Program-made: the position numbers and the translations under genes | Source of the DNA: a virus | Lineage: Duplodnaviria; Caudoviricetes | Virus record (IMG/VR): IMGVR_UViG_3300020411_000002 | DNA: 64,000 bases | Reading direction: 5' to 3' (one strand) | Notes under the pieces: generated by a model | What the model was told of the DNA's origin: nothing | The model's input: the letters and a program-made list of their open reading frames with translations, nothing else | The model's database searches: none | In this document: piece by piece, positions 1,569 to 59,315 of the stretch | How the letters are laid out: each line of letters opens with the position of its first letter | Numbering within the stretch: position 1 is the stretch's first letter

Positions 1569-2066
1569 CTATAGTTTGTTTTTATCTACGTCTAATTTTG
1601 AACGTATATCAAATAACCCTCTTCTACTATGCTGTTCGATATAGGAAATGCTACTGAACTCAAAAACAAATTGTGTATTCTTCAAGTCCTCTTTTGGAAC
1701 AGGCATGCCTAAGTAATAGAATTGTTTATCCCAGTCTATATCACAATGTTCGTGTACTCGACCTTTCTTATCTACATTAAATACGTGCTGAAACATTTCC
1801 CACTTAGAATTATTTCTATACACAAAGTATCCAATGTAGACAGGTAGACCTTTCTCTTCATATACTTTAACTGCTGATTCCGCCGGATTGTTACGACTGT
1901 ATTCTACTGTCTTGATACCTCTATCAATAACAGGTAGTTTATAGAGTCTTATAGGCAAGTCACGAATATGAAAGTAACGATTAGAAAGTTCTTCTATCGT
2001 ACTCATATTCAAATGCTTTGGGCTTCTAGATAGACTTAGACTCGTTAAATCTAATATTGCCTGCAT
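1569..2066 (-). CDS. Hypothetical protein with N-terminal SLS motif (putative head protein)
   Basis: Track ORF 1569..2123; likelier start ATG 2066 after GGAAG, giving MQAILDLTSLSLSR. Confidence 0.65.
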   Translation of the reverse strand: MQAILDLTSLSLSRSPKHLNMSTIEELSNRYFHIRDLPIRLYKLPVIDRGIKTVEYSRNNPAESAVKVYEEKGLPVYIGYFVYRNNSKWEMFQHVFNVDKKGRVHEHCDIDWDKQFYYLGMPVPKEDLKNTQFVFEFSSISYIEQHSRRGLFDIRSKLDVDKNKL

Positions 2067-2724
2067 ATATTTCTTCCAATCTATCTTTAACAAATTCAAT
2101 AACCTTACCAACCGTTTGTTCAATAGTAAGCTCAGATGTATCTATTAAAGTTATGTTTTCTGGTTCTGCGAGATTCCACTCTTTGTATTTGCTGACTGCA
2201 TTTCTGTAACACCCAGAAAGACGGTCTGCATCGGAATACGCTTTTTCAATTGCATCGTTTTCTAAATCGGCTGTGTCTCTGTCTAAACACTCTAGCTTAC
2301 GCTGTGCAGAAACTTTACCGTTAACGTCTAGAACTATGTAGATGCGATTAACAGGCTCTTCGAAAGGTCTGTTAAGTATTGTTCTAGTTGCAGCAAACAC
2401 TCGGCTTGCTTCATTGTCTTTCATGTACTCACACTGGTACGCATAAGTAGACATATCAGAGCGGTCAAAAATATGTAGGTTTGTTGGCGATTCAGCAACA
2501 TGTTCTAGCAATACTGATCTGCTAAGAAGCATAGCAAACAGATTAGAAGTATTACTTAGTGAATTGCTTTTAACAATGTCACGTACAGCTTCACCAACAA
2601 GAGTACCGCCAGGCTCTCTGTGTCTTTCCACCAGCATTGTTTTACTGAGGAAGTTATATAGAGAACTAACAGCATGAGTTTTGCCTGAATAATCAGGACC
2701 GTCTATTGCAATTATTGTTTTCAT
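2026..2724 (-). CDS. tmk: Thymidylate (dTMP) kinase
   Basis: P-loop IDGPDYSGKT, REPGGT, DRSDMSTYAYQ motifs; start moved to ATG 2724. Confidence 0.92.
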   Translation of the reverse strand: MKTIIAIDGPDYSGKTHAVSSLYNFLSKTMLVERHREPGGTLVGEAVRDIVKSNSLSNTSNLFAMLLSRSVLLEHVAESPTNLHIFDRSDMSTYAYQCEYMKDNEASRVFAATRTILNRPFEEPVNRIYIVLDVNGKVSAQRKLECLDRDTADLENDAIEKAYSDADRLSGCYRNAVSKYKEWNLAEPENITLIDTSELTIEQTVGKVIEFVKDRLEEIYAGNIRFNESKSI

Positions 2725-2748
2725 AAATACCAACTGTGGAGGATTGTT

Positions 2749-3369
2749 TTATTCTAACCAAGCATTCTCAGCACTGATAACACGTTCGGGGCCCAGCTTT
2801 TTAGTTTCTGGGTCTTCTATTCGAACTTTAACTTTGTTACCGAATGGCTCTACACCTAACAAGACACCTTGGTATTGTTTATTCTTACCAATAAGAATTG
2901 TTTTGTTAAATGAAGTTTGAGCACCCTTGGTCTTTCTTGGATTGAACATAAGAGATTTTAACCCCTCTGCCCTTTTAAGGTGTTCAGCACACCACTTTCT
3001 AGAATCTGCTGCATCAGAATCTTTAATGCGTTGCAGATCTAAGTTGCAGAAAAAAGCTTGGATAGCAGGCTCTTTGTCTGCAAACATGTAAGCACTTGGT
3101 TCAGCTAGTCTAGGGCTGGAACGACTTACCATGTAACGCCCAATACCCAAACGGCTTAGAGTTGTTACGCTATTAGTAAATCGACTTTTCCAAATGCATC
3201 TATACAGTTTAGAATCTTCTTCATATATCCAATTAAGGATAATGTGACCTATCTGAGTGTTATCGATAGGAATAGCTCCACCTTTTCTCTGGGAGAGCTT
3301 CTTATTAAAAGTCTTTACGAAAGAGCTTTTCTCAGATAGAGCTATTAGCCCCTCAATATCTAAGCGCAT
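2749..3369 (-). CDS. Hypothetical protein
   Basis: 206-aa ORF with AAGGT upstream; no family recognised. Confidence 0.7.
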   Translation of the reverse strand: MRLDIEGLIALSEKSSFVKTFNKKLSQRKGGAIPIDNTQIGHIILNWIYEEDSKLYRCIWKSRFTNSVTTLSRLGIGRYMVSRSSPRLAEPSAYMFADKEPAIQAFFCNLDLQRIKDSDAADSRKWCAEHLKRAEGLKSLMFNPRKTKGAQTSFNKTILIGKNKQYQGVLLGVEPFGNKVKVRIEDPETKKLGPERVISAENAWLE

Positions 3370-3418
3370 AGCACGACCTTATTGTTAGTTTTGTACAATA
3401 CTTTAAATTAGTTAATTG

Positions 3419-3763
3419 CTACCATAGATCATTCAGTGCCCAATAAGCAGCCTGAAACTTATCTTTATATGCTAGCTTACCGTCTTTTGTTTTGATGCCC
3501 ATGTGGCGCTTACGATAGTTATCTCTACGCTTTTTATCTTTATGCGTAGTATAGTCTTCGTAGTCCTTATGTCCGTACTTAACTAACTTAAACTGATTTC
3601 CTTTCTTAGCAAGCACACATCGTTTGTGTCTGCTGTCAGTAGGATTATCTATTGGTTTGTTCCAGCCGGGAAAAGTCATTCCACGATACTTTAGCTTACC
3701 GTTTTCTTTTTCTACCTTTTCTATGGGCTGGCTTGTTGCTGATAGACTTACTAGTATCTTCAT
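3419..3763 (-). CDS. Small basic protein, DUF5754-like, with N-terminal SLS motif
   Basis: YGHKDYEDYTTHKDKKRRDNYRKRH and AAYWA motifs resemble this viral family from memory; begins MKILVSLSA. Confidence 0.65.
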   Translation of the reverse strand: MKILVSLSATSQPIEKVEKENGKLKYRGMTFPGWNKPIDNPTDSRHKRCVLAKKGNQFKLVKYGHKDYEDYTTHKDKKRRDNYRKRHMGIKTKDGKLAYKDKFQAAYWALNDLW

Positions 3764-4502: not shown

Positions 4503-4951
4503 TCTGATTTTATAACATGGACAATACGAACATCGTTAGTAACTTGACTAAGAGGTAAGTACCCGATTCCGCCTTCGTCTAATGTTATTCCATTAATTAA
4601 CTGTGAGGGCTTGCTTACAAGCACTGGAGGCTGTACGTTGTTAGTATACAAATTCTTAGCCCAAGAACTCTGAATTTCAAACAAAGTCTTATCAGCTAGA
4701 AAATTTTTATTAAATTGATCGATAAGTACTGGGTCGTTTACCATATAGATAGTGAGGAAGAGATTAACTTTAGAATAACCTTTCCGTTTACCTAGAAATA
4801 TCTCTCTTATATTTGAACGTGTTATGTCTGAATAGTTAGACTGATTTACAACGACTACTATATCTGAACTTGCATCGTATATAGGCTCTTCTAATGAGTA
4901 CGAAAAGAAAGGCATCAAAGAAAAGAAAGATAGCGTTAGCAGCTTTTGCAT
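4499..4951 (-). CDS. Secreted single-domain periplasmic-binding-protein-like protein
   Basis: Signal-peptide-like N terminus; VVVVN..N...IREIFLGK, W...YT..V.PP, GIGY motifs as in gammaproteobacterial proteins annotated as phosphate ABC substrate-binding-like. Confidence 0.72.
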   Translation of the reverse strand: MQKLLTLSFFSLMPFFSYSLEEPIYDASSDIVVVVNQSNYSDITRSNIREIFLGKRKGYSKVNLFLTIYMVNDPVLIDQFNKNFLADKTLFEIQSSWAKNLYTNNVQPPVLVSKPSQLINGITLDEGGIGYLPLSQVTNDVRIVHVIKSE

Positions 4952-4952
4952 A

Positions 4953-5396
4953 TCAGTCCTCTTGAATAGGTTCTATATATTCACCAGCAAGCTCTAGTTT
5001 AAAATTAGCTAAATCCATTTCTAGGAATTTTTTCTTTTCTTCACTAGTTGGTTGATACTTGATAGAAATGTGTGGGCTGAACTCAGGATAAGAGTGTCTA
5101 AGTTTATAGACTTTCTTTAACGCTTCGTGTCTGCGTGAAAGAGCAGGTGCGTCTAGCTTTAAAACCAATGCTTCCCACTTATCGCCAGCTTTACCGAATA
5201 CGTCTTTACCTGTTACAGTAGCTTTGAAAGTTCTGTAAGGTGCAGGGGTAAACTTGTGATGTACATCATCTTCAGGAGCGTAAATAATTGTTGCATGTAA
5301 ATCATCAATCATTCTTGTGAAGTGTGCGCGGAATAAGTTTCTCAATTGCGCTTCGCTTTCAGGTGTAAGCCTAATACCTATATAAGTTCCAATCAT
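4953..5396 (-). CDS. acb1: Acb1 / T4 gp57B-like 2H phosphoesterase (anti-CBASS)
   Basis: Two 2H motifs LHATIIY and PHISIKY, plus GTY, LVLKLD..L..RH and EY.EP at gp57B-like spacing; 147 aa. Confidence 0.85.
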   Translation of the reverse strand: MIGTYIGIRLTPESEAQLRNLFRAHFTRMIDDLHATIIYAPEDDVHHKFTPAPYRTFKATVTGKDVFGKAGDKWEALVLKLDAPALSRRHEALKKVYKLRHSYPEFSPHISIKYQPTSEEKKKFLEMDLANFKLELAGEYIEPIQED

Positions 5397-5761
5397 GATA
5401 TCTTTCCCAATGTTTTAAACTTTGCTATGTGTACTACGTGTCTTCTATCCAACGAACCAAAGCGATACGTAAGAGCAGTAGGGTTGAATCGGTCTTCAAC
5501 GCGTTTGTCTTCGTATGTATCAAACAGAATAAATTTCTTTTGTTCGTCTAATACAATCATGTGAGAAGGGTCATTACTTCCCTTGTGACTTAGTAATGCA
5601 AAATGCAAATCAGGTCTACGTCTATTCTTAAAGTAATACATACTTCCAGCGTAGCAGCTTGCCTCTGAATGAGGTATGCGTTCTCTTCCTTGTGCTATGT
5701 CTTCTAACCAAGAAATACGCTCGTGTAGAGTACGATTAGATAGAGATATTAATAACTTCAT
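5393..5761 (-). CDS. Hypothetical protein with SLS tag; possible Cys-His-Asp triad
   Basis: Begins MKLLISLSN; SCY...SHMIVLD...LFDT. Confidence 0.6.
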   Translation of the reverse strand: MKLLISLSNRTLHERISWLEDIAQGRERIPHSEASCYAGSMYYFKNRRRPDLHFALLSHKGSNDPSHMIVLDEQKKFILFDTYEDKRVEDRFNPTALTYRFGSLDRRHVVHIAKFKTLGKIS

Positions 5762-7260: not shown

Positions 7261-7270
7261 TACATCAACC

Positions 7271-9602: not shown

Positions 9603-9611
9603 ATCTTTCCC

Positions 9612-39588: not shown

Positions 39589-41559
39589 TTAGCGTGGCAG
39601 ATTTTTCAGCAGGCCAGCCGCGCGATTTTTGAAATCACCTGAAGCTACGCTAGACTGTGAAGTCATTGCACTAGATTCAGATTGTGGTTTACTCGCTACA
39701 GTGCGTGGCTGCAAGCGATTTTCGAAAGTGCTTGAAGTAGAAGCAGTGCCGTCTTTACGTGCGTAAGAAGCAGAAGCTACCATACGAGAAATTTCGTTTT
39801 GGGTTTCCGCAGGCTTCTTAACAAGTTCAACAGCTTGTTCTACCAGCATACTATTAAGGGTATCAGCGTTAGCTTCAAACACGTTGTCAACTAATTGACG
39901 AGCGTTTTCAACACCAGATGCCTTAAGAGTGTTTGCTAAGCTATCAATGATTGGGTTTGATTTACCATTGAATACACCACGGTTAATACCCATCATAGCT
40001 GTAGCCAGAGCAGCAGTGAAACGATCAACTACAGTAGCGTCACGTTCTTCCTGTGCAGAAGCATAAGCTTCAACTTTAGCTTGGGCGTCTGCGGCAACTG
40101 AGCGTTCAACTACGGTTTGCATAGTATGTTCGTCAAATGCGATAGACTCAAAGCCAAATTCACGTAGACCTTCCGATACACCGTTAGAAGCGATAGACTT
40201 CATAACAGCAGAAGCGAAGCTTTGTGAGCGGAAGATTTCTTTAACCGTGCCTTCAACGTTAGACTCTGATGCAACAGCAATAGGCGTAGCGCTATGCATT
40301 GCAATCCAGCGGTTTTCGCCAGCAACAGTTGCAGCATTAACTAGAGCAATCTTGTCTGCTTCCAGACCGTTTTCGCTTGCGTATGCTACCGCTTCCATAA
40401 CGTCTAAAGAAACCGTTACTTCGGCAACAGATGAATCAGATTCAACATCTTCTTCTTCTTCATCTTCAAGACCGTCTACGTCATCCGAATCTTCTTCATC
40501 TTCGTCATCTTCGTAAATGTCTTCTTCGTCGTCGCCTTCGTCTTCTTCATCGTCTTCAAGGTCGTCGTCTTCAAGGTCGTCGTCTTCAACGTCATCGTCG
40601 TCAGAGCTTGATACGATAGTAAGGTCGTCTAGGTCGTCGTCTTCATCGTCAAAGAGGTCGTCGTCTTCTAGATCGGCTTCGATTTCGTCTAACTCAGAAT
40701 CTTCATCATCGAAGATATCATCGTCTTCCATCATTCCGGCGTCCATTTCAAGTACAGACTGTTCCAGTTCTTGAATATCTTCTGGGTCAACAACCGCAGA
40801 CGAGCAAGACGGACAAACTGTAATGTCTTCACTTGAAGCAATAATGTGCATACCGCATTCTTCCGAATCAACACACTGGAAGTAGTGAGCTTCGTTGCCG
40901 TATTTGCTAGACAATGATTTAAGTACTGAGCTATCAGATTCAATGTCTTGTGCAGTTACGTCTTCGCCGTAGAACGGGCTGAACTTCACGTTATCGCTAC
41001 TGTTAGAAATAAATGATACATTAGTACCATCAACGTAAGATAAAGCAGGTTCGTGACCTTGAGCAATCGCGATAAAGTCTTGCTGCGCTTCTTCCATAGA
41101 AGAGGCTACAACGACAATACCTTGGCTGCCGCTAAGCTCACTGTAGTCGCTTGATTCAGATTCGAACTCTTCTTCAACGTCTGCTTCAAAATCAACATGA
41201 GCGTTACAAGAAGGGCAGTTAGAAACTGATTCGCAAGAGTCCGCAATGATATGAGTAGAGCATTCACTACACATAGCGTATTCTACAACTACCTTATCGT
41301 CGGGGTCAGCACTGGAAGTTACTTCGAGATCAGTATCCACTACATTCATGGTTTCACCACCGTCGCGAAGTGGATTCAAGAAAGTATTTCCTGAGCCTGC
41401 GACAGTAGCTAGTGCGAAAGAGTTATCACTAGAAGCGAGTACTTCTAAGCTTTCTCCAAGCGCAACCTTGGCGTAGTTACGGATAGCTTCATCCCGAGAA
41501 CTAGCAGTAACAACAATACCAGCGAAAGAAGGTTGCTGGGTTTTCTGTTTTACTGTCAT
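39589..41559 (-). CDS. Putative prohead scaffold: two Zn-ribbon domains, acidic tract, helical C terminus
   Basis: Duplicated GIVV.ASS..EA unit, each with Cys pairs ending CPSC; long D/E tract; first gene of the head operon with AGGAG RBS. Confidence 0.6.
   Translation of the reverse strand: MTVKQKTQQPSFAGIVVTASSRDEAIRNYAKVALGESLEVLASSDNSFALATVAGSGNTFLNPLRDGGETMNVVDTDLEVTSSADPDDKVVVEYAMCSECSTHIIADSCESVSNCPSCNAHVDFEADVEEEFESESSDYSELSGSQGIVVVASSMEEAQQDFIAIAQGHEPALSYVDGTNVSFISNSSDNVKFSPFYGEDVTAQDIESDSSVLKSLSSKYGNEAHYFQCVDSEECGMHIIASSEDITVCPSCSSAVVDPEDIQELEQSVLEMDAGMMEDDDIFDDEDSELDEIEADLEDDDLFDDEDDDLDDLTIVSSSDDDDVEDDDLEDDDLEDDEEDEGDDEEDIYEDDEDEEDSDDVDGLEDEEEEDVESDSSVAEVTVSLDVMEAVAYASENGLEADKIALVNAATVAGENRWIAMHSATPIAVASESNVEGTVKEIFRSQSFASAVMKSIASNGVSEGLREFGFESIAFDEHTMQTVVERSVAADAQAKVEAYASAQEERDATVVDRFTAALATAMMGINRGVFNGKSNPIIDSLANTLKASGVENARQLVDNVFEANADTLNSMLVEQAVELVKKPAETQNEISRMVASASYARKDGTASTSSTFENRLQPRTVASKPQSESSAMTSQSSVASGDFKNRAAGLLKNLPR
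40551..40595. repeat. 15-bp tandem repeat (two exact copies plus one degenerate) encoding DDDLE
   Basis: cgtcttcaaggtcgt x2 then cgtcttcaacgtcat. Confidence 0.8.
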
Positions 41560-42429: not shown

Positions 42430-43587
42430 TTACTTTTTTGCAGCAGTTTCCTTCTTAGCTGGTGCAGCTTTAGTCGCTGGTGCAGGTACGTCTTCAGGCT
42501 TCTTGTACTTAAAGCCTAAGTCTTTGATTTTATCCATTAGAGCTTTTTGCTCTTTCAAGATTTTATCTTTAGCCGCAGGAGTCTTAGCATTCGCCAAACG
42601 CGCTGTACGAGTAGCTAACTGTTTGAATAACGGATTAGCTTTCTTCATTACTTCTGGATCTTTCAGAAGCTTTGCATTACCGCCGCGTGGTGCTTTAGCT
42701 GGGGCTTTAGCAGGAGTCTTCGCTGTAGGCTTCTTACCACCTTTCTCACGAGCAGTAGCGTCTTTGATTGCGTTTTCCATTTTCTCAACGTATTCAGGAC
42801 GCAACTTACGATTCATCGCTTTAGCTTTCATCTTGAAGAACTTGAATTCTTCTTTTAGATCTTCACTGCCACGTTTATGTGCGTTAGCGCCTGGGCGACG
42901 GAAGTTACTTGGAGTCTTTGGTACACCCGGAGAGTTAGGACCTAACTTCTTACCAGCAGGTGCTTTAGCTGGGGTCTTACCAGTTTGCTTTGGATCTTTG
43001 TTTGCATTCTTATCGCCGCCAGTGATTACACTAAAGATACGACGAGCAGACATACGCGGACCGAGATACTGACGAGTAAGACGACCACCATTTGCAGGCT
43101 GCTTAAATACATGCCAACCTGGGGCAATCATGTTTGGTGCGCGTTTCTTACGACCCATTTGAACACCAGCACCTTGACCGCCAGTACCTTTCTTAGGTTG
43201 TGCAGAAAGCATTTCAAGAGTACCCATATCGATAACGGTATCTTCCATTGCTTCTGCTTCGATAGAAAGATCCATTTCGTCTTCATGATAATCTTCTGTA
43301 CCGTAGAACGGAGTTGAAGAAATAGATTCCATATCACGCAATGCAAAAATCTTTTGCTTCATTGAAGGCATGTACTTAACTTCTTTTGCAACGCGAAGTA
43401 GTACAATAGTTTCTTTCTTGGTTTTAAGAACGTAACGCCCAGGCTGCTTGTGTACAATACGCGGAGCAGGACGAATTTGCTTTAAAGCATCTTGTAAAGT
43501 CTTTGGAACTTCAACAGCCTTTTTGGCAGGTTTTTTACCACCAGCACGAGGTGCGCTTAGAGATTCAAACGTAATATTAATAGACAT
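42430..43587 (-). CDS. Basic histone-H1-like putative head protein with SLS tag
   Basis: MSINITFESLSA; KTPAKAPA twice; K/A/P-rich C-terminal half. Confidence 0.65.
   Translation of the reverse strand: MSINITFESLSAPRAGGKKPAKKAVEVPKTLQDALKQIRPAPRIVHKQPGRYVLKTKKETIVLLRVAKEVKYMPSMKQKIFALRDMESISSTPFYGTEDYHEDEMDLSIEAEAMEDTVIDMGTLEMLSAQPKKGTGGQGAGVQMGRKKRAPNMIAPGWHVFKQPANGGRLTRQYLGPRMSARRIFSVITGGDKNANKDPKQTGKTPAKAPAGKKLGPNSPGVPKTPSNFRRPGANAHKRGSEDLKEEFKFFKMKAKAMNRKLRPEYVEKMENAIKDATAREKGGKKPTAKTPAKAPAKAPRGGNAKLLKDPEVMKKANPLFKQLATRTARLANAKTPAAKDKILKEQKALMDKIKDLGFKYKKPEDVPAPATKAAPAKKETAAKK
42433..42439 (-). promoter_or_regulatory. Candidate -1 frameshift heptamer A AAA AAG
   Basis: In-frame GCA AAA AAG TAA; AAGGA 9 nt upstream; the -1 frame is open for 210 codons downstream. 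Confidence 0.55.
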
Positions 43588-43651: not shown

Positions 43652-44182
43652 TTAACCAAATCGCGTTCCAACAAATTTACCATTCCTATAAAGAGGTTTA
43701 GAAGCTTTTGGATCAAGCATACCAAGCTGAAATTCTTTGGTAGCATATTCACCACCACCAGGAGCGTGGTAATCTAAAAGGAATTTAAGAACGTTATCCT
43801 TTGAGCCGTGTACAGAAATCACCGAATCGCCACCAGGACCATAACCTGAATCCCAATTCTCAAAGCGGAAACTTACTTTGAATTTGTTAAATATGTCTAA
43901 CTGCTCTTCAAGTTCAATCAATGCGCTATCGTAAGCTTCTTGGTCATCAGCAGAATCAGGCAAAGTTATAGGTCTAGCTACTTTAAACTGTGAGCCCGTA
44001 AGATTTTCTATTGCAGATAACACATCGCCTATTGGCTGCACAACTAAGATAGTAGAATGGGCTTCACCTCCAGCAGTACCTGTATTACCAATTAGCTTTT
44101 GTGCTTGTGCAAGTTTACGTGCAACTCTCTTATAAGTGGAAGATCTTGCGCTAATGCTAGACAAGTTGATTGTTATATTCAT
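43652..44182 (-). CDS. SxS-tagged putative head protein
   Basis: MNITINLSSISAR; GPGGDSVISVHGSKDNVLKFL module. Confidence 0.65.
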   Translation of the reverse strand: MNITINLSSISARSSTYKRVARKLAQAQKLIGNTGTAGGEAHSTILVVQPIGDVLSAIENLTGSQFKVARPITLPDSADDQEAYDSALIELEEQLDIFNKFKVSFRFENWDSGYGPGGDSVISVHGSKDNVLKFLLDYHAPGGGEYATKEFQLGMLDPKASKPLYRNGKFVGTRFG

Positions 44183-44190: not shown

Positions 44191-44667
44191 CTATATAGTT
44201 TCGTACAGACGTTTGAGACCGTTCATCTTGCCGGGATAGCCTTTACGTTGCAACAAGTTAAAGAAGTCTACGGGTTTCATTTCATGTAACGGGTTGCTAT
44301 CTCTAGCTGTACCGCGCGGATGAATGTAGTCTTTAACGAAATCATCAAATTCGATTTCGTATTCTACACTGTCTTCAACAAACTCTAAGAACTGGGCCCA
44401 AAGTTTATCTTCGTCAGCAGTGTTTAGGTCTACAAGTTCGTATCTATCTACGTCACGCGCCGGTAGCTCTTTAGGATAAGCTAGTATGCCGTGTCTGTAG
44501 TTACGTGAATCACGAATACCAGCAAAGCGTTTATCTTTTGCAGCATTCTCTGCATCAATAAATTCTACTGGCTGTGGATTAGTAGGTTGAGCGCCGATTG
44601 AATATGGACGGAATTTCAATCCATAGTAAAACTTCTGCGGCGCGCTTAATGAGATAAAGATTTCCAT
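44191..44667 (-). CDS. DarA C-terminal-like domain protein (defence against restriction), SLS-tagged
   Basis: YYGLKFRPYSIGAQP...RHGILAYPKELP..DVDRYEL matches the DarA_C signature as recalled. Confidence 0.7.
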   Translation of the reverse strand: MEIFISLSAPQKFYYGLKFRPYSIGAQPTNPQPVEFIDAENAAKDKRFAGIRDSRNYRHGILAYPKELPARDVDRYELVDLNTADEDKLWAQFLEFVEDSVEYEIEFDDFVKDYIHPRGTARDSNPLHEMKPVDFFNLLQRKGYPGKMNGLKRLYETI

Positions 44668-46388
44668 TATACGTCTTTGCCTTCTTCTGCAAGCTTAACC
44701 ATCTTCTCAATAGTTACAGGCATACGGGTTTCCAGTTTGCTGTAGTAGTCTTTCAAGATAAGAGGGTCAATGTAGTTAGCAATAGCTGTAGCTACTGTAA
44801 GTTTACCATTAGCAAAGTGACCAAGGTCTTTAGCTACTTTAAGAAGTGCTTTCTTCAACCATTCGTTAACCTGCTTAGCATCAGGCTTACGCTGTCTTTC
44901 GTAAAGAGGGCACTTATCAATAATACTCTTTGCTAAACGCGTTCCACGTAAAGTACGGAATTTGTGAACTGTTACTTTTGGAGGCATACCTATTTCACGT
45001 AGATACTTGTTAACTACGTTTGCAGATATTGGACGACCGTTAAAAGTAATTAGTCTGTCTTTACGTACTTTAGGTTTGCGTTTTCCTTTTTCCAAAATGT
45101 TATCTTTGGCTAAAGTATCTAACATTTCAATCAAAAGGCGTTGATTGGGATTAGAAGTAACAAGTCTATGTCTTTGCTCTTGGCTCTTCTTGCCTGGATA
45201 CTTCAACTCACGATTGCTACCCTTCTTGTAGTAGTGTCCCACTTGAAGAGTAGTAATACCGTATGTAGGCTTACCATCAGTAGAGTTACTAGCACCACCG
45301 ATTCGTCCGTAAGTCTGGTATACTAACTCGCACACACCAGCAATAACACCAGTACGAGTAGTAATGCCTTCAGATTTGAAAGTGTCTAACCAACGCTTAC
45401 GAATACCATTTGCTTTCTTATCGAATACAGCAACAGCCGCAAACTTCTCTGCAACACCAGCAGCTTTGTGTTCAACAGTGTATATGTTTGACCAGCCTTG
45501 AGCCATAGGTGCTTTAGTCTGACAAACGTATCCATCGTCTTTCTTTGGATTGTAATTCGGATTCATCTGTACTTCACCGACAGGCGTACCATTTAGCATC
45601 TTGCCTTGTACAGTGTAGTACTTCATCTTATCGTCAATGTATCCAACGAAGCCTTCTGGAATTGGGTGTCTGCGAATACCAGCAGCTTTGATTTCGTCTA
45701 TAACAGTGCGTACACCAAGATAAGGTTTACCGCTTTGTCTAACGAGATTCATTACAAAGTTTTTGGGAATTGCATTAAGCTCACGCTTTAGACGATTGTA
45801 TTCTTTTAGCTTTGCAGTGTCTTTGTATTTCTTACGGGTGTCAGCATCAATGTCGATATCCAAACCACCCATAGAAGATGTAAGACGTTTAAGCTTTGTT
45901 TCTAATTCGTCTTGATCACCTAACTCAACCGAGAAGTGTCGAGCAATAGATGTATCGTTTAAATCAGACACAAGCACTGTAAGCTTGTCTAAGGCATTTT
46001 TTCTAGTAGTCTCGTCTTTACTGTTTACCACAGTATTGAACTTACGAATGACTTCTAGTTGCGCCCTTGAAACCGCATGTTCATTTGCGATAGATTCTTT
46101 CATTGCTTGGCGAATAGAGTATGAAAGATTAGTAGCGAGTTGCAACATATTCTCGCTGTCCCATATTAGGTACCCATCTTTCAAATATTCAACTAGCTCT
46201 TCAAATGATTCTTCATCTATATCAAAGGCGTGAACGAATTTGATTGCATTACTATACCAATCATCTAGATTAGCATAAACGTCGAGGGGCATTTTAAACC
46301 CCTCTTGTTCTGAGAACGCTACCATTGCTAAGATTTTTACAAAGCTATTAGCAACAGCAGGATTTACTCTGGAAAGTGATATTAACAT
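44667..46388 (-). CDS. DNA topoisomerase IB (bacterial/poxviral type) with N-terminal extension
   Basis: Catalytic set present: GRIG (Arg), ITTL..GH, YPGK (Lys), HKFRT (Arg), LGH (His), NYIDP (Tyr); begins MLISLSR. Confidence 0.85.
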   Translation of the reverse strand: MLISLSRVNPAVANSFVKILAMVAFSEQEGFKMPLDVYANLDDWYSNAIKFVHAFDIDEESFEELVEYLKDGYLIWDSENMLQLATNLSYSIRQAMKESIANEHAVSRAQLEVIRKFNTVVNSKDETTRKNALDKLTVLVSDLNDTSIARHFSVELGDQDELETKLKRLTSSMGGLDIDIDADTRKKYKDTAKLKEYNRLKRELNAIPKNFVMNLVRQSGKPYLGVRTVIDEIKAAGIRRHPIPEGFVGYIDDKMKYYTVQGKMLNGTPVGEVQMNPNYNPKKDDGYVCQTKAPMAQGWSNIYTVEHKAAGVAEKFAAVAVFDKKANGIRKRWLDTFKSEGITTRTGVIAGVCELVYQTYGRIGGASNSTDGKPTYGITTLQVGHYYKKGSNRELKYPGKKSQEQRHRLVTSNPNQRLLIEMLDTLAKDNILEKGKRKPKVRKDRLITFNGRPISANVVNKYLREIGMPPKVTVHKFRTLRGTRLAKSIIDKCPLYERQRKPDAKQVNEWLKKALLKVAKDLGHFANGKLTVATAIANYIDPLILKDYYSKLETRMPVTIEKMVKLAEEGKDV

Positions 46389-47815: not shown

Positions 47816-48427
47816 CTATATATAATCCACATAAGCGCCATTTCCAGTTTGAGAGCTATATACTCTTGCAACTTGTTCAGCTTGTTTCTTAGTGCCTGGG
47901 TACTGCATAAGCTTAGTACCGTTATGATTATACGCCATGTAACCGGAAGTTCTTTTCACTACGTTTTCTTCTCGCATGAAGTCAAGAGAGTCAAGGTCAT
48001 TAGAATCTGGTTCTCTTTTTCTAGAAATTCTATCAACTCGTTCTCTTCTAATAGAACGAAGAGTTTCAATATCTTTTGGCGGTTGTTTTTTACCTGTAGA
48101 AGAATTTGTCTGATAACCTTTAAGCGGCTTAATAAGCTTCAATGCTGCAATGATTGTAGGAAACTGTTTAGCAACTGACAGCTTTTTAACAGCGCTCTTC
48201 ACGTTAATGCTGGCTTTAGCATTGGCAAACTTTTCTACGCGCTCAGGATCAGCAGATTTTAAGAATCCTAAGAGCGCATCGAGACCTGCAGTATCTACAA
48301 GCTTTTCTTTGCTGTAAGTTTCAAGAATAGGAATTACTTTCTTTGCGCTCTTGCCGAAAAGTATTTCAGCGTTTGCCATTTGTTTTTTAGTAGCAGATTC
48401 GCTACGAATGTTTAAGTTAATTTTCAT
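47816..48427 (-). CDS. SxS-tagged basic putative head protein
   Basis: MKINLNIRSESA. Confidence 0.65.
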   Translation of the reverse strand: MKINLNIRSESATKKQMANAEILFGKSAKKVIPILETYSKEKLVDTAGLDALLGFLKSADPERVEKFANAKASINVKSAVKKLSVAKQFPTIIAALKLIKPLKGYQTNSSTGKKQPPKDIETLRSIRRERVDRISRKREPDSNDLDSLDFMREENVVKRTSGYMAYNHNGTKLMQYPGTKKQAEQVARVYSSQTGNGAYVDYI

Positions 48428-48495: not shown

Positions 48496-48930
48496 TTAGG
48501 CAAATTTCTTTAGCTTAGCATTGATTGCTTTCAAATCTCTTTTTGCATCACCGCTAGGTTTGATATCGATAGTCTCATCCCCACCTCGCATTATATTGTA
48601 AGCTACGATAGAGATTAAGTACCCATCAGAGCGAGGAAGAGAATAGTTGGCATCGCGTACATCAGACTTTTCAGGATAGCTAGAAATAGTTACAGAATAA
48701 TTACCTACCGTTTTAGCCAAGTAGTTAGCTTCTTCAAAGTCCCAACCATCCTTTAATAGAGATTGAGTAAGTTCAGGTAATTTACTCACTGGAAGAGAAT
48801 TCCCGGTCGGTCTGTTAGGACTGTACGCTCTGTCGTAAGTATACGTGCCATTATACATTGTACCTCGTGCGTCTTCTGAATAGCCTTTAGAGGTTGCAGA
48901 CATTGATTGTAAATTGATAGTAAGTTGCAT
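48496..48930 (-). CDS. SxS-tagged putative head protein
   Basis: MQLTINLQSMSA; AGGA RBS. Confidence 0.65.
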   Translation of the reverse strand: MQLTINLQSMSATSKGYSEDARGTMYNGTYTYDRAYSPNRPTGNSLPVSKLPELTQSLLKDGWDFEEANYLAKTVGNYSVTISSYPEKSDVRDANYSLPRSDGYLISIVAYNIMRGGDETIDIKPSGDAKRDLKAINAKLKKFA

Positions 48931-49573: not shown

Positions 49574-50374
49574 TTAACGCATAATACTCATTACTTGGTC
49601 TGGATTATGGTGATTAGCAACGTAAGCTGGATCTTCTACCGCGCTATTCTCAAACCCTGTAATGTTGTGTAAGTAACGATAGACCAGACGATTGTTTTCT
49701 AAGTATGTAGGTTTATTAACTACAGTGTGAGAACAAACACGGCGTAAGTTTTCTTTATATACCGTATGACCGCAGAACGCACAAGTATAAGCTTGATACC
49801 ACATACCAATGCTGTAAGTATTCAAGTCGTGGGTAAGAATACGATTAGCAAGCACAGGGTCTTTAGTTCTATCGAATGCAAGCAACTGAATGATACGTGC
49901 ATGATTACCTATAAAGTTAGGCATAGATTTCATGTACACATCTAAGATAACACCTTTAGCTTTGGTAATATCTTTGTTGTCGTGTTCTTGGTGAGTAGGT
50001 TTACCTTTCCAAGTTTTATAAGCTAACATTCCCAAGTCTGGACGGAAACGCAATGCTTCGGCAGTAGATAGACAGTCACCATTTGTGTTTGGTATATCTG
50101 TAATAACCGCAGGAACAGGCACCATTACGTAGTCACGCAAGTTAGGACTGATTTGATAATGCTCAGCAGCCATAGGTAGCCAAGCGTTTGCATCGATATC
50201 AATATTATCAGAAGCACCAGTAATACTAGGCTTTAGTGTCACGCGATTAGACTTACCAACATCTTTTAGTTCAGTAGGTTGTGCGGCAATATTTCTTTGA
50301 GAGATATCAAACGAAGAACTCATAAAGCTATTTTCTTCATTTGGTATCATTACGTTTTCTAAATCAATCTTCAT
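49574..50374 (-). CDS. Prohead maturation protease (HK97/herpes-like clan) with Cys-rich insertion
   Basis: N.NGD, EHDN (His), YSIG, GFENSAVEDPA (Ser motif); CAFC...CSH insert. Confidence 0.8.
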   Translation of the reverse strand: MKIDLENVMIPNEENSFMSSSFDISQRNIAAQPTELKDVGKSNRVTLKPSITGASDNIDIDANAWLPMAAEHYQISPNLRDYVMVPVPAVITDIPNTNGDCLSTAEALRFRPDLGMLAYKTWKGKPTHQEHDNKDITKAKGVILDVYMKSMPNFIGNHARIIQLLAFDRTKDPVLANRILTHDLNTYSIGMWYQAYTCAFCGHTVYKENLRRVCSHTVVNKPTYLENNRLVYRYLHNITGFENSAVEDPAYVANHHNPDQVMSIMR

Positions 50375-50377
50375 GAC

Positions 50378-51019
50378 CTACCTCGTAAAACATATATCGT
50401 TAGAGTGAATCGAATAGATTCCTTTGCTTACTTTGTGACTTCTTGCATCACCTACATCAGCATCGGAGCAGTATCTACAATACGCTTTCACAATATGCTC
50501 GTTAGGTTTTTTAATACGCTTTGCTTCGAATACGCTTTGGTAAACAAGGCGTGAGTTGTTTCTACCGTTGTCATCTGCAATGTAGTAGCCGACAACTTCT
50601 TCAAATTCTGGAAGTTGAAGAACAAGCTTTTCCAGTCTAGCAATGAAAGAGCGAATAGGCTGAATGCCGTCCATAGAGAATCTACTTAAAGCAGTGTTAA
50701 CTTTCTTAATAGACTCAGTAATGTTATACAGACCTTTTTCGTCTAACTCACTAGGAAAGCGGATAAGTCCTTTGTACAAGAAGTTTAATTCCGCTGCAAG
50801 AGTTCTAAATGTTTCTTGGTCAACAATATCCATACGGCGTTTGGTATGCGTACCGTCATTGAACTTTTGTTGGGTTTGCTTATCAACAATCTTTATTAAA
50901 GATGCTGTTTTACGAATAGCCCAAGGAAGAATAAAACTATTAGCTAGCTTTCTATATGGGTATTCTCGGTCATTAGTTACGTTTAGCTTTATATTGTCAA
51001 AGCTTGGTAAGTTACTCAT
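50378..51019 (-). CDS. Hypothetical protein
   Basis: 213-aa coupled ORF. Confidence 0.65.
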   Translation of the reverse strand: MSNLPSFDNIKLNVTNDREYPYRKLANSFILPWAIRKTASLIKIVDKQTQQKFNDGTHTKRRMDIVDQETFRTLAAELNFLYKGLIRFPSELDEKGLYNITESIKKVNTALSRFSMDGIQPIRSFIARLEKLVLQLPEFEEVVGYYIADDNGRNNSRLVYQSVFEAKRIKKPNEHIVKAYCRYCSDADVGDARSHKVSKGIYSIHSNDICFTR

Positions 51020-52434
51020 AGGTAATCCTTATTCAAGTTATGCTTTATCCAGAGTTTGCATTCATCATACGTCTGACGTATTGGATTGAATAAAACAACT
51101 CGATTAGATTTTACGATTGTGTAAGGCTTGGTGTCTTGTCTACCAGTATGAAAAGAAGATTCTGAAAACCCTTCATAGAGCTTAGCTTTCCAACTACGGC
51201 GACTCTTACCATTGCCTTCAATTTCAGGGTCAGACTCGATACAGCCAATAATACGATTATCGAACATAACGTCAAAGCGTGTTCGCTCTTTAGAATCTAG
51301 ACGTTTTTGTTTAGGACATACTCGAAAAGAAATACGAGGAGTAACGGCTGAATCAGATTCTAGTCCGTCTATTGTGTCAAGCTCTAAAGGAACTTGTTCT
51401 TCCTCAGGCTCTTCTTCCATTTCTTTCTCTAGCTCTTCCTCAGTAGGCAAAAAGCCCTCTTCAATCATTTCTTGAATGGCTTGAATTTTGGCAATCTTTA
51501 CTGATAGTGCCTCTAAGTCCAAGTCTTTAAACCAATCAGAAAACAAATTAATGAAAGTTTCTAAAGTGTCCTTAACTTCAGGCGGCTCATAGTCTTCGTC
51601 TTCGTCTTCTGGCTCTTCTTCCTCAGAAACCTCGTCAGCCATTTCGTCTATATCATCTTCATTCGATAGAGATACAAACCTTTTGGATGCAAGGGAATCT
51701 AGAAATAATTCAAGCTCTGTTTTGTAGTCGTTAACGCTGGTGGATTTGCGGGCAGCACTTACACTACTTAAACCGTTACCATCCATGTAGCGTTTAATTT
51801 CTTTATAGTTGGTAGGACCCAAGAAAGCACCAAGTACAGTATCGACTAAACGATTGCTGGTCTTAGACAATCCTTTTTGACCTACAATGTTTTCAGTAAT
51901 AGACTTTAGAACTTGCGTAGCTAACTTAGCGCCTTCCATTTCTTCTTTAGGTGCACCTTTAGCTTTGAACTTACCTTGCGCGAAAGTCTTGGTAAATGAT
52001 AGGAAGTTTTTATTTCCTTGGGGCGAGAACTTGTTAGCTACTACGTCTTTGATACGCGGTATGTTACGTCTAAACTTGGAATAGTTTTCTTGTATATCTT
52101 GTTTGACTGAATACTTGTTTTGAAAAACGCGCTCGTCAATAGCTCTGTCCGTAATAGCCTGTTTAGCTCTGGCTCGTCTACTTAACTTAACGGGTTCTTT
52201 TACTTCTGGCTTTGATGGTAGCGCAGGTTTTGCTTGCTTTCTTTCTGCCTTAGGAAGCTGAATTTCTTTACGCTTAGCTTTAGAAGAATTATCCAGTGAT
52301 AGAGTTCCAGCCCTAACACCTTGTGCATACTTGCTCTTTGGATGCGCTTCAATATAAGCTTTGCGAGTAGCTGGCGAAGCTTTCTTCCACCAGCCTGCTT
52401 CTTCGGCAGATAAACTAGTTATGCCATAATCCAT
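51016..52434 (-). CDS. SLS-tagged putative head protein with basic N half and acidic C half
   Basis: MDYGITSLSA; internal FVSLSN and LESDSA; WWKKAS...YIEAHPKSKY. Confidence 0.65.
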   Translation of the reverse strand: MDYGITSLSAEEAGWWKKASPATRKAYIEAHPKSKYAQGVRAGTLSLDNSSKAKRKEIQLPKAERKQAKPALPSKPEVKEPVKLSRRARAKQAITDRAIDERVFQNKYSVKQDIQENYSKFRRNIPRIKDVVANKFSPQGNKNFLSFTKTFAQGKFKAKGAPKEEMEGAKLATQVLKSITENIVGQKGLSKTSNRLVDTVLGAFLGPTNYKEIKRYMDGNGLSSVSAARKSTSVNDYKTELELFLDSLASKRFVSLSNEDDIDEMADEVSEEEEPEDEDEDYEPPEVKDTLETFINLFSDWFKDLDLEALSVKIAKIQAIQEMIEEGFLPTEEELEKEMEEEPEEEQVPLELDTIDGLESDSAVTPRISFRVCPKQKRLDSKERTRFDVMFDNRIIGCIESDPEIEGNGKSRRSWKAKLYEGFSESSFHTGRQDTKPYTIVKSNRVVLFNPIRQTYDECKLWIKHNLNKDYL

Positions 52435-52436: not shown

Positions 52437-52898
52437 TTAACTCAACATTGAAATAACGTTTCGTAAAATTTCAGCTTCGGGTATCTTGTACTTTTCAGAT
52501 ACTTGAGCTAAAGACTGAGTAAGCTTTTCTTTCACTTCATTAGAGGCAAGAGAAAGGTCTTTCTTTCGTTCACGATCTAAAGCTTTGTTCGTATTTTTGA
52601 TAAACGTAGGTGCTAGTGAGTTTAACACTCTTTCTATATCACCGATTTCAAGTTTACCGATATTGTACTCTTCGCGAAAAGCTACTATGTCTCGGTTGTT
52701 GCCTTTGATCATATTCTTAGTAAAAGTAATAATCTCTTCTGGCTTTAGCTTGGAAGTAGCTGTAATTTCAGATATCTCACCTAGAGCCTTCTTTGCGGCA
52801 TGAATGTTTCCATCAATAGCACTTTTTGCAAATTTTATTACATTTTTGATTAGCACACTAGAGCTTGCTAAAGAGGTTAAAGGTACACTTACTTTCAT
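52437..52898 (-). CDS. Hypothetical helical protein
   Basis: Start ATG 52898 overlaps the GT stop (ATGA); MKVSVPLTSLAS. Confidence 0.6.
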   Translation of the reverse strand: MKVSVPLTSLASSSVLIKNVIKFAKSAIDGNIHAAKKALGEISEITATSKLKPEEIITFTKNMIKGNNRDIVAFREEYNIGKLEIGDIERVLNSLAPTFIKNTNKALDRERKKDLSLASNEVKEKLTQSLAQVSEKYKIPEAEILRNVISMLS

Positions 52899-56988: not shown

Positions 56989-57014
56989 TAGAAACCTTAA
57001 TGCCTATTTCAACT

Positions 57015-57218
57015 TTAGGTCTTTTCTCTGTTAGCGCAGACCGGTGTACCAGATTTTCTGTTAGTGTTATTGGTTTGAAACTCATGTGATTCCTCTACGC
57101 GTATCAAATCGTCTATACCGTAAAAGCCTACAATAAATGCAGGCTTAACGTCTTTTGCTTTTTTATATCCGCCTTTACCATCATGAATAACAGCATCGCC
57201 GGGTCGTATTCTATCCAC
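57015..57218 (-). CDS. Small hypothetical protein
   Basis: GTG start after AGAGGA. Confidence 0.5.
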   Translation of the reverse strand: MDRIRPGDAVIHDGKGGYKKAKDVKPAFIVGFYGIDDLIRVEESHEFQTNNTNRKSGTPVCANREKT

Positions 57219-57531
57219 TTTTATCCTCTTTATCTAAACAAATATGAGCAACAAAATTTCCATCTTCTTCCGATATAGCACACCGACGAACCTTGCAGTT
57301 AGGATTAAGCATCGAGTACTCAGACATATCCATGTTAAATGATTCTAGTACTTGCTCTACTGTAGGCAGCGTATCCATCTGACTATAATCGTAAACAATA
57401 CCCTCGTCTTCCTGTGTCACATTAGGATATGAACGGTTATGTTCTTCTGCTATCTTATCAATAGCTTTACGCCAACTATTCATTAAGTTTGAAATAGGTT
57501 GGTCGGTTTCTTCTTTCCAATCTATAGACAT
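57211..57531 (-). CDS. Small acidic hypothetical protein
   Basis: 106-aa coupled ORF. Confidence 0.55.
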   Translation of the reverse strand: MSIDWKEETDQPISNLMNSWRKAIDKIAEEHNRSYPNVTQEDEGIVYDYSQMDTLPTVEQVLESFNMDMSEYSMLNPNCKVRRCAISEEDGNFVAHICLDKEDKSG

Positions 57532-57533
57532 AG

Positions 57534-59315
57534 TTAACTCGTTATCGGTTCGTTAGATTTGTCGTAGTTTTCTATATTGTTAAAGTACTTAGTAAACTCT
57601 TTTGGATTAAGCTTACGTACAAAGTCGGCTTCTTTCTCAATAGACTGATTAGTCTTCGAGCTAATACGAACTGTTTGATATTCCATTGGGTCATTAGTAA
57701 TGTCGTAGACCTTGTATACCGTAATAGAATCGTTTTTCTTTAGAGGGTAGATATCAAGAATTAGATATTCGCGTTGTTCAGTCTTGTCTTCCTTAAACTG
57801 AATTACATCGCCTTCCTCATACGCTTTAGTCTCTTCGACGTCCTCAACAGACTCGGGGTCTTCATCCTCTTCTGCGAGTTCAACATCTTCGTCTTCATCA
57901 TACGATTCTTGCTCAATGTCATCCAGATCGACAGGCTCTTCGCTTTCATCCTCTTCAATCTCTTCGACTTCTTCTGTATCTTCCTGTACTTCATCATCGG
58001 GATCGTCCTCTATCTCGGTTTCTTCTTCCGACTCTTCAAGCTCAGATTCTTCTTCGATATCTGGATCTTCTTCATCGTCTGGAAGTTCTTCATCTTCGTC
58101 CTCAAAATCGGCTTCTTCTTCCTCGTCTTCATCTTCTTCCATAGATTGAGAAAGTTCTTCTCGCATATCACCTATTTCAGAATCAAGACTTTGACCTATA
58201 GCATCAGAGTCTGCATCGACAGAAACAATTTCGTCTTCATCGATTATATCATCGCCTTCTAGGTCAATGTTATCAATGTCATCAAGATCATCAAAGTCAA
58301 AATCACCGTCATCATCGGCTGCCATGTCGTCTAAGTCTGCAACAACTTTCTCTTTGTCTTGCATTCGCTTAGAAGATTCTTCAATGACAATATCGTCCAT
58401 GTCTTTTACAGGCGCATAAATTGAAGGTGCAACATCTTGCATACCAGCCAAACGTAAAGCCTCTTTACGAGCCTTTTCTTGCTTCTCTAGTTTCTTGCGC
58501 TGTATTTCTTCAAGACGTTTTTGTTTGGCTTCTCGCTTAGCCTCTTTGATTTTTTCACGAGCTTCTTTTTCTTTTAGAGCTTTGGAAATCTCTCTATCTT
58601 TTTTAAGTCTCTTTATCTCGTCCAATGTAACTTTTCCTTTAAGCCATCTGTTTAGCGGCAGTAAAGGTGAATTCTCTACTAGATAGTCATACTTGTCTGT
58701 AGGAATCGCCCAGCTAGTACCATCAGGAAAAGCAATAACACCGCCACGACTTTCCTTTAAAAATCGAAGACCAAACACTTGGCCTTTTTCCATTTCAAAG
58801 AACTTGTCTAGTGTTTTGCTGTACTTAAACTTTGGAACGTTAAGCTTTCGCCACTGGTAGTTTTGAAAGAACACACCGTGCTTACTTTCTGGTACTGGTC
58901 TAGAAGCATTGCGCGTTGGATAGTATCTATCTGCGGCGGTATCATAGACACGAGTATTCGGATTTTCAATAGGCCGTCTAGGTGCGCGTGGAGAAGAATT
59001 CTTGTTTCCTCTCCCTGCTCTAACGTCTTCTATTTTTGGTGCTTTACGTTTGTGAGATCGTTTAACTAGGTTAACTAGGTCATTCTCTGATATTGGATAA
59101 GCTACATAATACTTATCAGGAAAGATTAAGTAAGCGCGATTGCCACGAATAGGTTTAATACCAAATACAGCTTTAGGTGGAATAGAGATATCAAAGTTTC
59201 CCGATTCCATCTTTTTGGTTCTTAGACCTTTATACGTGTACCAATTGTATTGCGGTAAATCAGAATACTTTACTGCTACGCTTACGGATTCTAATTCATT
59301 TATATTCTCAAACAT
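57534..59315 (-). CDS. Putative head protein: two shared domains, coiled coil, acidic tract
   Basis: MFENINELESVSV; duplicated W...FG(I/L) unit; K/E coil; long D/E tract. Confidence 0.65.
   Translation of the reverse strand: MFENINELESVSVAVKYSDLPQYNWYTYKGLRTKKMESGNFDISIPPKAVFGIKPIRGNRAYLIFPDKYYVAYPISENDLVNLVKRSHKRKAPKIEDVRAGRGNKNSSPRAPRRPIENPNTRVYDTAADRYYPTRNASRPVPESKHGVFFQNYQWRKLNVPKFKYSKTLDKFFEMEKGQVFGLRFLKESRGGVIAFPDGTSWAIPTDKYDYLVENSPLLPLNRWLKGKVTLDEIKRLKKDREISKALKEKEAREKIKEAKREAKQKRLEEIQRKKLEKQEKARKEALRLAGMQDVAPSIYAPVKDMDDIVIEESSKRMQDKEKVVADLDDMAADDDGDFDFDDLDDIDNIDLEGDDIIDEDEIVSVDADSDAIGQSLDSEIGDMREELSQSMEEDEDEEEEADFEDEDEELPDDEEDPDIEEESELEESEEETEIEDDPDDEVQEDTEEVEEIEEDESEEPVDLDDIEQESYDEDEDVELAEEDEDPESVEDVEETKAYEEGDVIQFKEDKTEQREYLILDIYPLKKNDSITVYKVYDITNDPMEYQTVRISSKTNQSIEKEADFVRKLNPKEFTKYFNNIENYDKSNEPITS

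Follow-up and report, generated by a model that had tools for sequence, protein, structure and literature searches.

Why do a dozen proteins encoded in one stretch of phage DNA, which have little else in common, begin with the same few residues? The stretch, hereafter the window, comprises 64,000 nt of viral DNA (Duplodnaviria; Caudoviricetes; IMG/VR record IMGVR_UViG_3300020411_000002), and the element in question is a short hydrophobic segment followed by Ser-x-Ser and frequently Ala, here called the tag or leader, which a first-pass annotation had connected with the loading of proteins into the head and with the protease encoded at 49574..50374. The results presented below show that the tag exists, that it is under selection at the level of the protein, that it is found throughout the clade to which this phage belongs, and that matching sites are present in the major capsid protein and in the protease itself. 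The tag is probably a propeptide of head-packed proteins comparable to the capsid targeting sequence (CTS) of bacteriophage T4, cleaved in this case after a small-x-small motif (Ser or Ala) and not after Glu.

The window belongs to a jumbo myophage of the PaBG/NCTB type. The nearest record is that of Phage NCTB (257.9 kb), whose protease shows 78% protein identity to the open reading frame (ORF) 49574-50374, and farther relatives are Pseudomonas phage PaBG and the Erwinia/Dickeya jumbo phages Y3, Alexandra, JA11 and AD1 (protease identity 44-49%), a set that has been named the 'Lupandier group' (PMC7412058). The hosts of the cultured relatives are Pseudomonas, Erwinia and Dickeya, and the homologues of the protease (n=216) outline a clade with hundreds of metagenomic members and few cultured phages. 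All long ORFs of the window are located on the minus strand, which applies to all window coordinates given below.

Enrichment of a short N-terminal tag

The 12 N termini listed in the first-pass annotation were all found at the predicted minus-strand starts, including those of ORFs 33546 and 2066 (named, like other tagged ORFs below, by their start position), in which the start is an internal ATG of a longer ORF and is supported by the NCTB orthologues. The motif occurs far above background, as that annotation had implied. In a set of 71 curated window ORFs, whose first ~16 residues were compared with the remainder of the same proteins, S.S was observed 28 times at N termini against 6.8 expected, and it ranked at the top of all gapped residue pairs in an unbiased scan (p = 1e-9, Bonferroni 4e-7). 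Enrichment was also found for S.SA (10 vs 0.65 expected), for S[LIMVE]S[ARNV] (13 vs 0.89) and for the strict pattern [LIVFM].[LIVFM]S.S (8 vs 0.30, p = 1e-9). No N-terminal enrichment in the window ORFs was found for the control pairs E.E, T.T and G.G, nor for the T4-like pattern [LI].E (6 vs 10.3 expected) or the phiKZ-like pattern [LIVF][SAG].E (3 vs 3.4 expected).

The logo of a set of 44 tags, with positions numbered from the predicted scissile bond (marked by an arrow), shows L/F/I at P5, I/V/L at P4, Ser at P3, L/E/I at P2, Ser at P1 and Ala at P1' (64%). This set was defined by its two Ser residues, whereas the preferences at P5, P4, P2 and P1' were not imposed by the choice of the set. 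The resulting consensus is M-K-I-[L/F]-[I/V]-S-[L/E/I]-S followed by Ala, and the leader is 6-16 residues long in the 44-tag set, with a mode of 8, and 5-16 residues long over all tags. The Ser codons are mixed (TCA, TCT, TCC, AGT and AGC), and therefore selection acts on the peptide; a DNA or mRNA repeat as the origin of the tag was rejected.

One short leader is thus common to 12-13 window ORFs which had been described as otherwise unrelated. When the tags were stripped, a single homologous pair was detected, 33546 and 59315, through the KMPT-N domain that both carry (BLASTP E = 4e-5), so that the description holds for all pairs except this one. As had been reported, Tmk, glycosyltransferase, ligase, sheath and tube do not start with the tag. 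Two known classes of leader were rejected as candidates: Sec, Tat or lipoprotein signal peptides, since leaders of 5-16 residues are too short, contain no lipobox Cys and in several cases have no basic residue, and an L27-like leader of the 80alpha/Prp type (resembling L-N-L-Q-F-F↓A), since the hosts of the cultured relatives are the wrong ones and no Phe-Phe is present in the tags. To our knowledge, the L27 extension and Prp are absent from the Pseudomonas, Erwinia and Dickeya hosts.

Conservation of the tag among relatives

The leaders are kept while the protein bodies diverge in NCTB, Y3, PaBG and six metagenomic contigs that were retrieved through diverse protease homologues. Leaders of NCTB include MLITLS↓R, MLISIS↓L, MKIISIS↓A and MLISLS↓A. 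Y3 carries a dozen of them (e.g. MKILISLS↓A and MKIFISLS↓A), with the strict pattern found 12 times against 1.7 expected (p = 3e-7). In PaBG the two small positions are occupied by Ser or Ala, mostly Ala (18 vs 7.0 expected), as in MHTSLS↓A, MLMIAEA↓K and MLIKINLLEAVA↓A. The same analysis rendered no enrichment of the strict Ser pattern in the genomes of T4 and phiRSL1, and of these two it was T4 only that showed enrichment of T4's own [hydrophobic]-[LI]-x-E ending.

A single Ser-tagged ORF, ORF127 (MISIS↓A), was found in phiRSL1, which represents a sister genus. Several small ORFs near the protease of phiRSL1 (in the set ORF120, 124, 127 and 133) share a different N-terminal motif, roughly A-A-V-x-R-L-x-A-T-E-V, and Mieseafarmvirus, to which phiRSL1 belongs, may use a different leader code.

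PaBG virions purified on CsCl have yielded bands of two tagged proteins, gp202 (221 kDa, MGSLFTLNSLS↓A) and gp83 (MLIKINLLEAVA↓A) (PMC7412058 Table 1). These bands are those of PaBG, and for the tagged proteins of the window phage a place in the virion is predicted. The literature on PaBG, Dickeya jumbo phages and jumbo-phage comparative genomics yielded neither a cleavage motif nor a longer list of virion proteins, no paper was found that defines a cleavage motif or leader for phages of the PaBG/NCTB type, and virion proteins are not marked in the GenBank annotation of Y3.

The leader is also found in relatives on an FHA-domain protein, two NUDIX hydrolases and a protein resembling LigT/2H phosphoesterases (NCTB 9071-9514; PaBG 182632-183165; sampled loci L044, 5632-6111, and L046, 5828-6274). 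These proteins are candidates for packaged counter-defence enzymes.

Matching sites in the head maturation protease and the capsid protein

The identification of 49574..50374 as the head maturation protease was confirmed. The 266-aa product matches phrog_18299, annotated as 'head maturation protease' (E = 6e-91), and has the gp21/assemblin fold: an exhaustive structural search (VIA) with its AlphaFold2 (AF2) model, which has a predicted local distance difference test score (pLDDT) of 85 and values below 50 in residues 1-26, rendered T4 gp21 as the best match (5jbl, Z 9.7, 139 of 165 residues aligned), followed by the proteases of the herpesviruses VZV (varicella-zoster virus, Z 6.8), HCMV (human cytomegalovirus, Z 5.4) and KSHV (Kaposi's sarcoma-associated herpesvirus, Z 4.4). 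A Foldseek search of the model against the PDB gave no match, and sequence searches against PDB chains and Pfam gave noise only and no Pfam family. Residues H131, S188 and H216, as well as C198, C201 and C214, are invariant in 51 homologues, and H131 and S188 are 57 residues apart. By their invariance, and by an order and spacing like those of assemblin and gp21, H131, S188 and H216 are the predicted catalytic residues.

The invariant Cys residues form, together with H216, a cluster Cys198-x2-Cys201-x12-Cys214-x-His216 that lies between the putative catalytic Ser188 and the third position of the triad. It may be a zinc site of a kind not described in T4 gp21 or in assemblins, in which case H216 may bind metal instead of taking part in catalysis.

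The disordered N-terminal linker of the protease contains the tag motif itself. Residues 17-22, FMSSS↓F (50309..50326), constitute a candidate autoprocessing site, and in the 51 homologues the motif [FML]-x-S-x-S↓F has Ser at P3 in 47, Ser at P1 in 43 (Ala in most of the others) and Phe at P1' in 38. Autoprocessing at S-x-S↓F is plausible; self-cleavage, at motifs of their own, has been shown for gp245 of phage SPN3US and suggested for T4 gp21 (PMC5694885, PMC10052503). No covariation of the linker motif with the tags of the same genome was seen; the protease of L044 has A-P-A↓F, but the tags of this locus are S-x-S. Prediction of a complex between the protease and residues 1-40 of the tagged DarA_C protein described below gave a score of 0.00, which is evidence neither way.

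A second match is found in the major capsid protein (37726..38808; 360 aa; phrog_2522, E = 2e-94), which has the HK97 fold and a predicted N-terminal propeptide of ~57 residues. Residues 53-58, IMSMS↓A (38635..38652), are the predicted maturation cleavage site and fit the tag consensus at P5, P4, P3, P1 and P1'. They form the end of a helix (residues 43-58 of the AF2 model) directly before the first residue that can be aligned to solved mature capsids, since 50 solved HK97-fold capsids (Z 12-16) align to the model from residue 59 onward only. Residue 117 of HK97 aligns to model residue 67 and, given that the mature N terminus of HK97 is Ser104, this terminus would fall near model residue 54. 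In the capsid homologues a small-x-small motif is present at the position of IMSMS↓A or within ~15 residues of it. In the PaBG capsid protein a cut at EAVA↓A (residue 78) would result in a loss of 21%, and this protein has been reported to lose ~20% of its mass (PMC7412058). The motif is found both at the boundary between propeptide and HK97 fold and in the protease linker, the approximate 20% of PaBG being the sole figure for processing.

The first-pass annotation had pointed to another capsid site, GLSALSS, and to a Ser-specific cleavage, and both proposals need modification. The former is conserved, as residues 30-34, SALS↓S (38707..38721), inside the propeptide (L32 is nearly invariant and the family consensus is ALSSSTGEFNA), but it is really A-L-S↓S, and IMSMS↓A is the better site. 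With regard to the latter, a cleavage site is supported by the motif at the capsid boundary and in the protease linker, but the specificity would be for small-x-small with Ser or Ala, given that PaBG has mostly Ala.

Internal sites of the same type concentrate around the head genes. When the profile of the N-terminal tags was run over 18,945 positions, 15 of the 25 best internal matches fell in the head island, which holds 24% of the residues (p = 1e-4). Five of the 25 are in an acidic 656-aa protein (39589..41559, isoelectric point (pI) 4.1) encoded between the protease and the capsid protein, a candidate scaffold, in which matches to the position-specific scoring matrix are located at residues 136, 187, 210, 217 and 433. 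The PaBG orthologue of this protein, gp82, is not in the published list of virion bands (PMC7412058).

A proposed leader for head maturation and its alternatives

The tag is linked to head maturation by its counterparts in the capsid protein and the protease linker, by the fold of the protease, by the domains of the tagged proteins and by the two PaBG virion bands. According to the reading that we favour, the leader would be a short N-terminal propeptide presenting an extended hydrophobic-S-x-S↓A segment, which would mark proteins for the assembling prohead. Inside the prohead the protease 49574-50374 would cut the leader behind the second of the two small residues (P3 and P1, each Ser or Ala); it would also trim its own linker at S-x-S↓F, relieve the capsid protein of ~57 residues by a cut at IMSMS↓A and probably break up the acidic scaffold-like protein. 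Once processed, the cargo would remain beside the DNA within the head, from which it would presumably be ejected into the host; it includes a type IB topoisomerase (TopIB), the DarA_C protein and two KMPT-N proteins, as well as a DNA-pilot-like fragment and a number of basic proteins. The scissile bond, the protease as the cutter, the tag as a targeting element and the ejection are what we infer from these observations, and the role of the leader may be targeting, mere cutting or both.

Several points weigh against this proposal. Cleavage in this phage group is a prediction from sequence and structure. In the Erwinia phages the aligned capsid site is not small-x-small (AFQ↓N), and an S-x-S is present ~10 residues downstream. 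The scaffold sites that the first-pass annotation had put forward are not significant by simple counting, since the plain S.S count of the 656-aa protein is explained by its composition (15 vs 10.3 from its Ser content, p = 0.08). An hhalign comparison of the protease family with T4 gp21 gave no usable alignment and, because a residue-level alignment to gp21 was not obtained, the catalytic residues are assigned by invariance and spacing alone. The whole-genome signal of the tag in NCTB is weak with crude ORF calls. Finally, some tagged genes are far from the head module (those at 1569-5761 of the window and several in Y3), and some tagged proteins of the relatives are enzymes (NUDIX, FHA, LigT-like) whose presence in the virion would be conjecture.

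Four other explanations were weighed, and none of them explains the matching capsid and protease-linker sites. The first, which we regard as unlikely, is that the leader is retained on the mature protein, either as an assembly or docking beta-strand that binds to the scaffold, the portal or the capsid interior, or as an ejection signal. Hydrophobic residues are indeed favoured at P6-P4 and P2, as in an extended segment, and removal of the leader is so far a prediction. On the other hand, two invariant small residues at i and i+2 followed by Ala make up a protease-site pattern, this pattern recurs at the capsid propeptide boundary and in a disordered protease linker, where docking makes little sense, and leaders of 5-6 residues (MLISLS, MFSFS) would be very short for a binding element.

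It seems improbable, and somewhat more so than docking, that the leader has a regulatory role with no connection to the virion, for instance as an N-terminal tag for degradation by a host AAA+ protease or in the initiation of translation of late genes. Many leaders start with Met-Lys followed by hydrophobic residues, in a loose likeness to ClpX N-motifs, and some tagged genes lie outside the head module. However, the tagged proteins of PaBG persist in virions as stable components (PMC7412058), such a signal would leave the capsid and protease sites unexplained, an mRNA feature is unlikely because the codons vary, and Lys at position 2 is optional (MLISLS, MEIFISLS, MQLT).

We give a slightly lower probability still to the possibility that the tag is cut by another enzyme. 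A 317-aa protein with a HELAH zincin motif (46850-47803) is encoded inside the cargo island, among tagged genes, and small residues at -3 and -1 are preferred by signal peptidase I, so that either this HExxH zincin or a host peptidase with such a rule could be invoked. The zincin, however, gave no Pfam family; its sole match is to a PHROG family without an assigned function, and its own N terminus (MKIDVLSVGS) carries no tag. Neither the basic n-region of Sec signal peptides nor their hydrophobic core, of some 10 residues or more, is seen in the leaders. Moreover, the loci that bear the protease contain both the tags and the S-x-S↓F motif of the protease.

Chance, or a shared ancestry of the N termini by paralogy or exon-like shuffling with no present function, is effectively refuted: a KMPT-N domain is common to two tagged proteins, but all other tagged pairs are unrelated, the enrichment seen in the window (p = 1e-9) recurs in Y3 and PaBG, and TopIB orthologues with 38-54% identity keep S-x-S without exception.

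Tagged proteins and neighbouring genes

TopIB (44667..46388; 573 aa; leader MLISLS↓R; Pfam Topoisom_I, E = 4e-16) has kept its S-x-S in 9 orthologues at 38-54% identity, whereas two distant homologues are without it; PaBG gp84 starts with MHTSLS↓A. Next to it is the DarA_C-domain protein (44191..44667; 158 aa; MEIFISLS↓A; Pfam DarA_C, E = 1e-8 from residue 11), whose orthologues are tagged in NCTB, Y3 and L046, followed by a 176-aa protein (43652..44182; MNITINLSSIS↓A) and by a basic, Lys/Ala-rich protein of 385 aa (42430..43587; pI 10.2; MSINITFESLS↓A). On the other side of TopIB are a basic 203-aa protein (47816..48427; pI 9.9; MKINLNIRSES↓A, and MEIVLSSES↓A in the L010 orthologue), a 144-aa protein (48496..48930; MQLTINLQSMS↓A) and, beyond the protease, a 472-aa protein (51016..52434; MDYGITSLS↓A) in which three of the top internal matches to the tag are located (at residues 226, 257 and 362) and whose orthologues in NCTB, L010, L011 and L044 keep the S-x-S leader ahead of a conserved WW motif. 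A 153-aa protein encoded at 52437..52898 (MKVSVPLTSLA↓S; tag-profile score 5.9), absent from the first-pass annotation, is a weak extra candidate.

Two KMPT-N proteins are tagged. That of 227 aa (32863..33546; MLISLS↓A; Pfam KMPT-N, E = 4e-11 from residue 15) has orthologues that start with MLISLS↓A in NCTB and MLIFLSES↓A in Y3. The other, an acidic protein of 593 aa (57534..59315; MFENINELESVS↓V; Pfam KMPT-N, E = 1e-12), has in its ESVS↓V the poorest match to the tag profile among the window tags, and its orthologues show clearer leaders (MLKLNLLSIS↓A in NCTB, MTQITLESLS↓A in L010, MRELVALS↓A in L044 and MFSFS↓A in L046). The remaining three genes are a 122-aa protein outside the head module (5393..5761; MKLLISLS↓N, with MLASMLISIS↓L in NCTB), a basic 114-aa protein (3419..3763; MKILVSLS↓A; phrog_220, E = 4e-17; Pfam DUF5754, E = 5e-10) with a body that corresponds to part of the 'minor head protein and DNA pilot' profiles, and a 165-aa protein (1569..2066; MQAILDLTSLSLS↓R, with MLADLNLSSLSLS↓P in NCTB).

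The presence of DarA_C, KMPT-N, a DNA-pilot-like segment and TopIB among the tagged proteins supports the idea of a packaged and ejected cargo, as does their frequently basic character (pI >= 8.9 in 8 of the 13). The diverse cargo that had been proposed (TopIB, DarA-C and DNA condensers) is consistent with these domains, which are typical of packaged or ejected proteins, while its loading into the head is proposed.

Two further observations concern individual cargo proteins. In most tagged TopIB orthologues (P0243-P0252, NCTB and PaBG gp84) the predicted N terminus after cleavage is Arg, Lys or Leu, which are destabilising in bacteria according to the N-end rule; in most other cargo it is Ala, Ser or Thr. 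A destabilising N terminus may act as a built-in timer for an injected topoisomerase. The gene of the 385-aa Lys-rich protein ends in GCA AAA AAG TAA (42433-42439, minus strand), which contains a dnaX-type slippery heptamer, A_AAA_AAG, just before the stop codon. From this point the -1 frame is open into a start-less ORF, 42355-41801 (41801-42355), and the heptamer has AAGGA ~10 nt upstream and a TAAGC...GCTTA stem downstream. This sequence arrangement makes it a candidate for a programmed -1 frameshift that would produce a longer isoform of the tagged protein.

The window corresponds to a late region, in which ligase, glycosyltransferase, head protease, the block of small genes, the acidic 656-aa protein and a 235-aa virion protein are accompanied by the genes of the capsid protein, the sheath and tube, the tape measure and the baseplate, and by an array of paralogues. 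The glycosyltransferase, of family 2 (52895-54019), is encoded immediately upstream of the genes for the tagged 472-aa protein and for the protease, a place that it keeps in L001, L003, L010, L011 and L046. The tandem paralogue array (5810-20654) has a separate N-terminal pattern (MF-x-FSSK-x-SF, MQGIN...) with a low tag-profile score and is outside the tag system.

Wider significance and comparison with known systems

A broader form of the proposal, in which the clade of PaBG and NCTB has a gp21-fold protease with assemblin-like chemistry (small P1, possibly His-Ser-His) and uses the 6-residue code [L/F]-[I/V/L]-S-x-S↓A as a portable and sufficient head-loading tag, is attractive, although we hold it to be doubtful at present. 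If it were true, sequence would suffice to list all proteins that a large clade of jumbo phages, most of them uncultured, packages and injects, including TopIB, DarA-like, NUDIX, FHA and 2H-phosphoesterase-like enzymes, and a 'first-strike' set of anti-restriction, topoisomerase, nucleotide-signal-degrading and DNA-coating proteins could be predicted from genomes. The gp21-fold head proteases of phages would have a third specificity class, beside (L/I)-x-E in T4 and (S/A/G)-x-E in phiKZ, which would be closer to that of herpesvirus assemblin and relevant to the common ancestry of the enzymes. In practice, foreign proteins could be loaded into jumbo phage heads by means of an 8-residue tag.

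The closest parallel is the CTS of T4, which is present on IPI, IPII, IPIII, Alt and gp24, has a length of 10-20 residues (6 in Alt), brings internal proteins to the prohead core and is removed by gp21 at (L/I)-x-E (Mullaney and Black 1996, as summarised in PMC5694885). In both systems a short leader, ending in the known (T4) or predicted (window) motif of the head protease, is carried by unrelated, often basic, internal or ejected proteins, the motif is also present in the capsid propeptide, and the protease has the gp21 fold; the very short leaders have a precedent in Alt. In contrast to the (L/I)-x-Glu of T4, the window tags have Ser or Ala at P3 and P1 and no acidic residue, and the window protease has no Pfam match and a profile that does not align to that of T4 gp21. 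Targeting has been proven by experiment in T4, whereas in the window phage it is suggested by the sequence.

A second group of proteases to be compared is that of SPN3US gp245 and phiKZ gp175 (MEROPS S80), which cut after A/S/G-x-E (PMC10052503, PMC5694885). SPN3US and phiKZ are also jumbo myophages, in which P3 is small (A/S/G) and numerous head and ejection proteins bear N-terminal propeptides; cleavage takes place at more than one site of the propeptide, and the protease acts on itself as well, as proposed here. However, P1 is Glu there (A-x-E) and Ser or Ala here, and the propeptides have mostly 111-254 residues there and 5-16 here. In SPN3US, ~80% of the head proteins are uncleaved, and no uniform leader has been described.

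Herpesvirus assemblin cleaves at (V/L)-x-Ala↓Ser. It resembles the window protease in the fold, in a small and uncharged P1 and, according to our assignment, in an invariant order His...Ser...His with a triad-like spacing. It differs in that this enzyme of eukaryotic viruses has as substrates the scaffold and itself, with no cargo tags, and in that H216 of the window protease is within a Cys-x2-Cys...Cys-x-His cluster.

Finally, packaging followed by injection has been described for polyvalent proteins and for the Dar proteins of P1 (Iyer et al., cited in PMC7824862). The window shares with them DarA_C, KMPT-N, a DNA-pilot-like segment and a zincin, as well as a presumed delivery with the DNA. 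In contrast to the polyvalent proteins, in which such domains are modules of one giant polypeptide, the proteins of the window are separate and small, and each of them carries its own leader.

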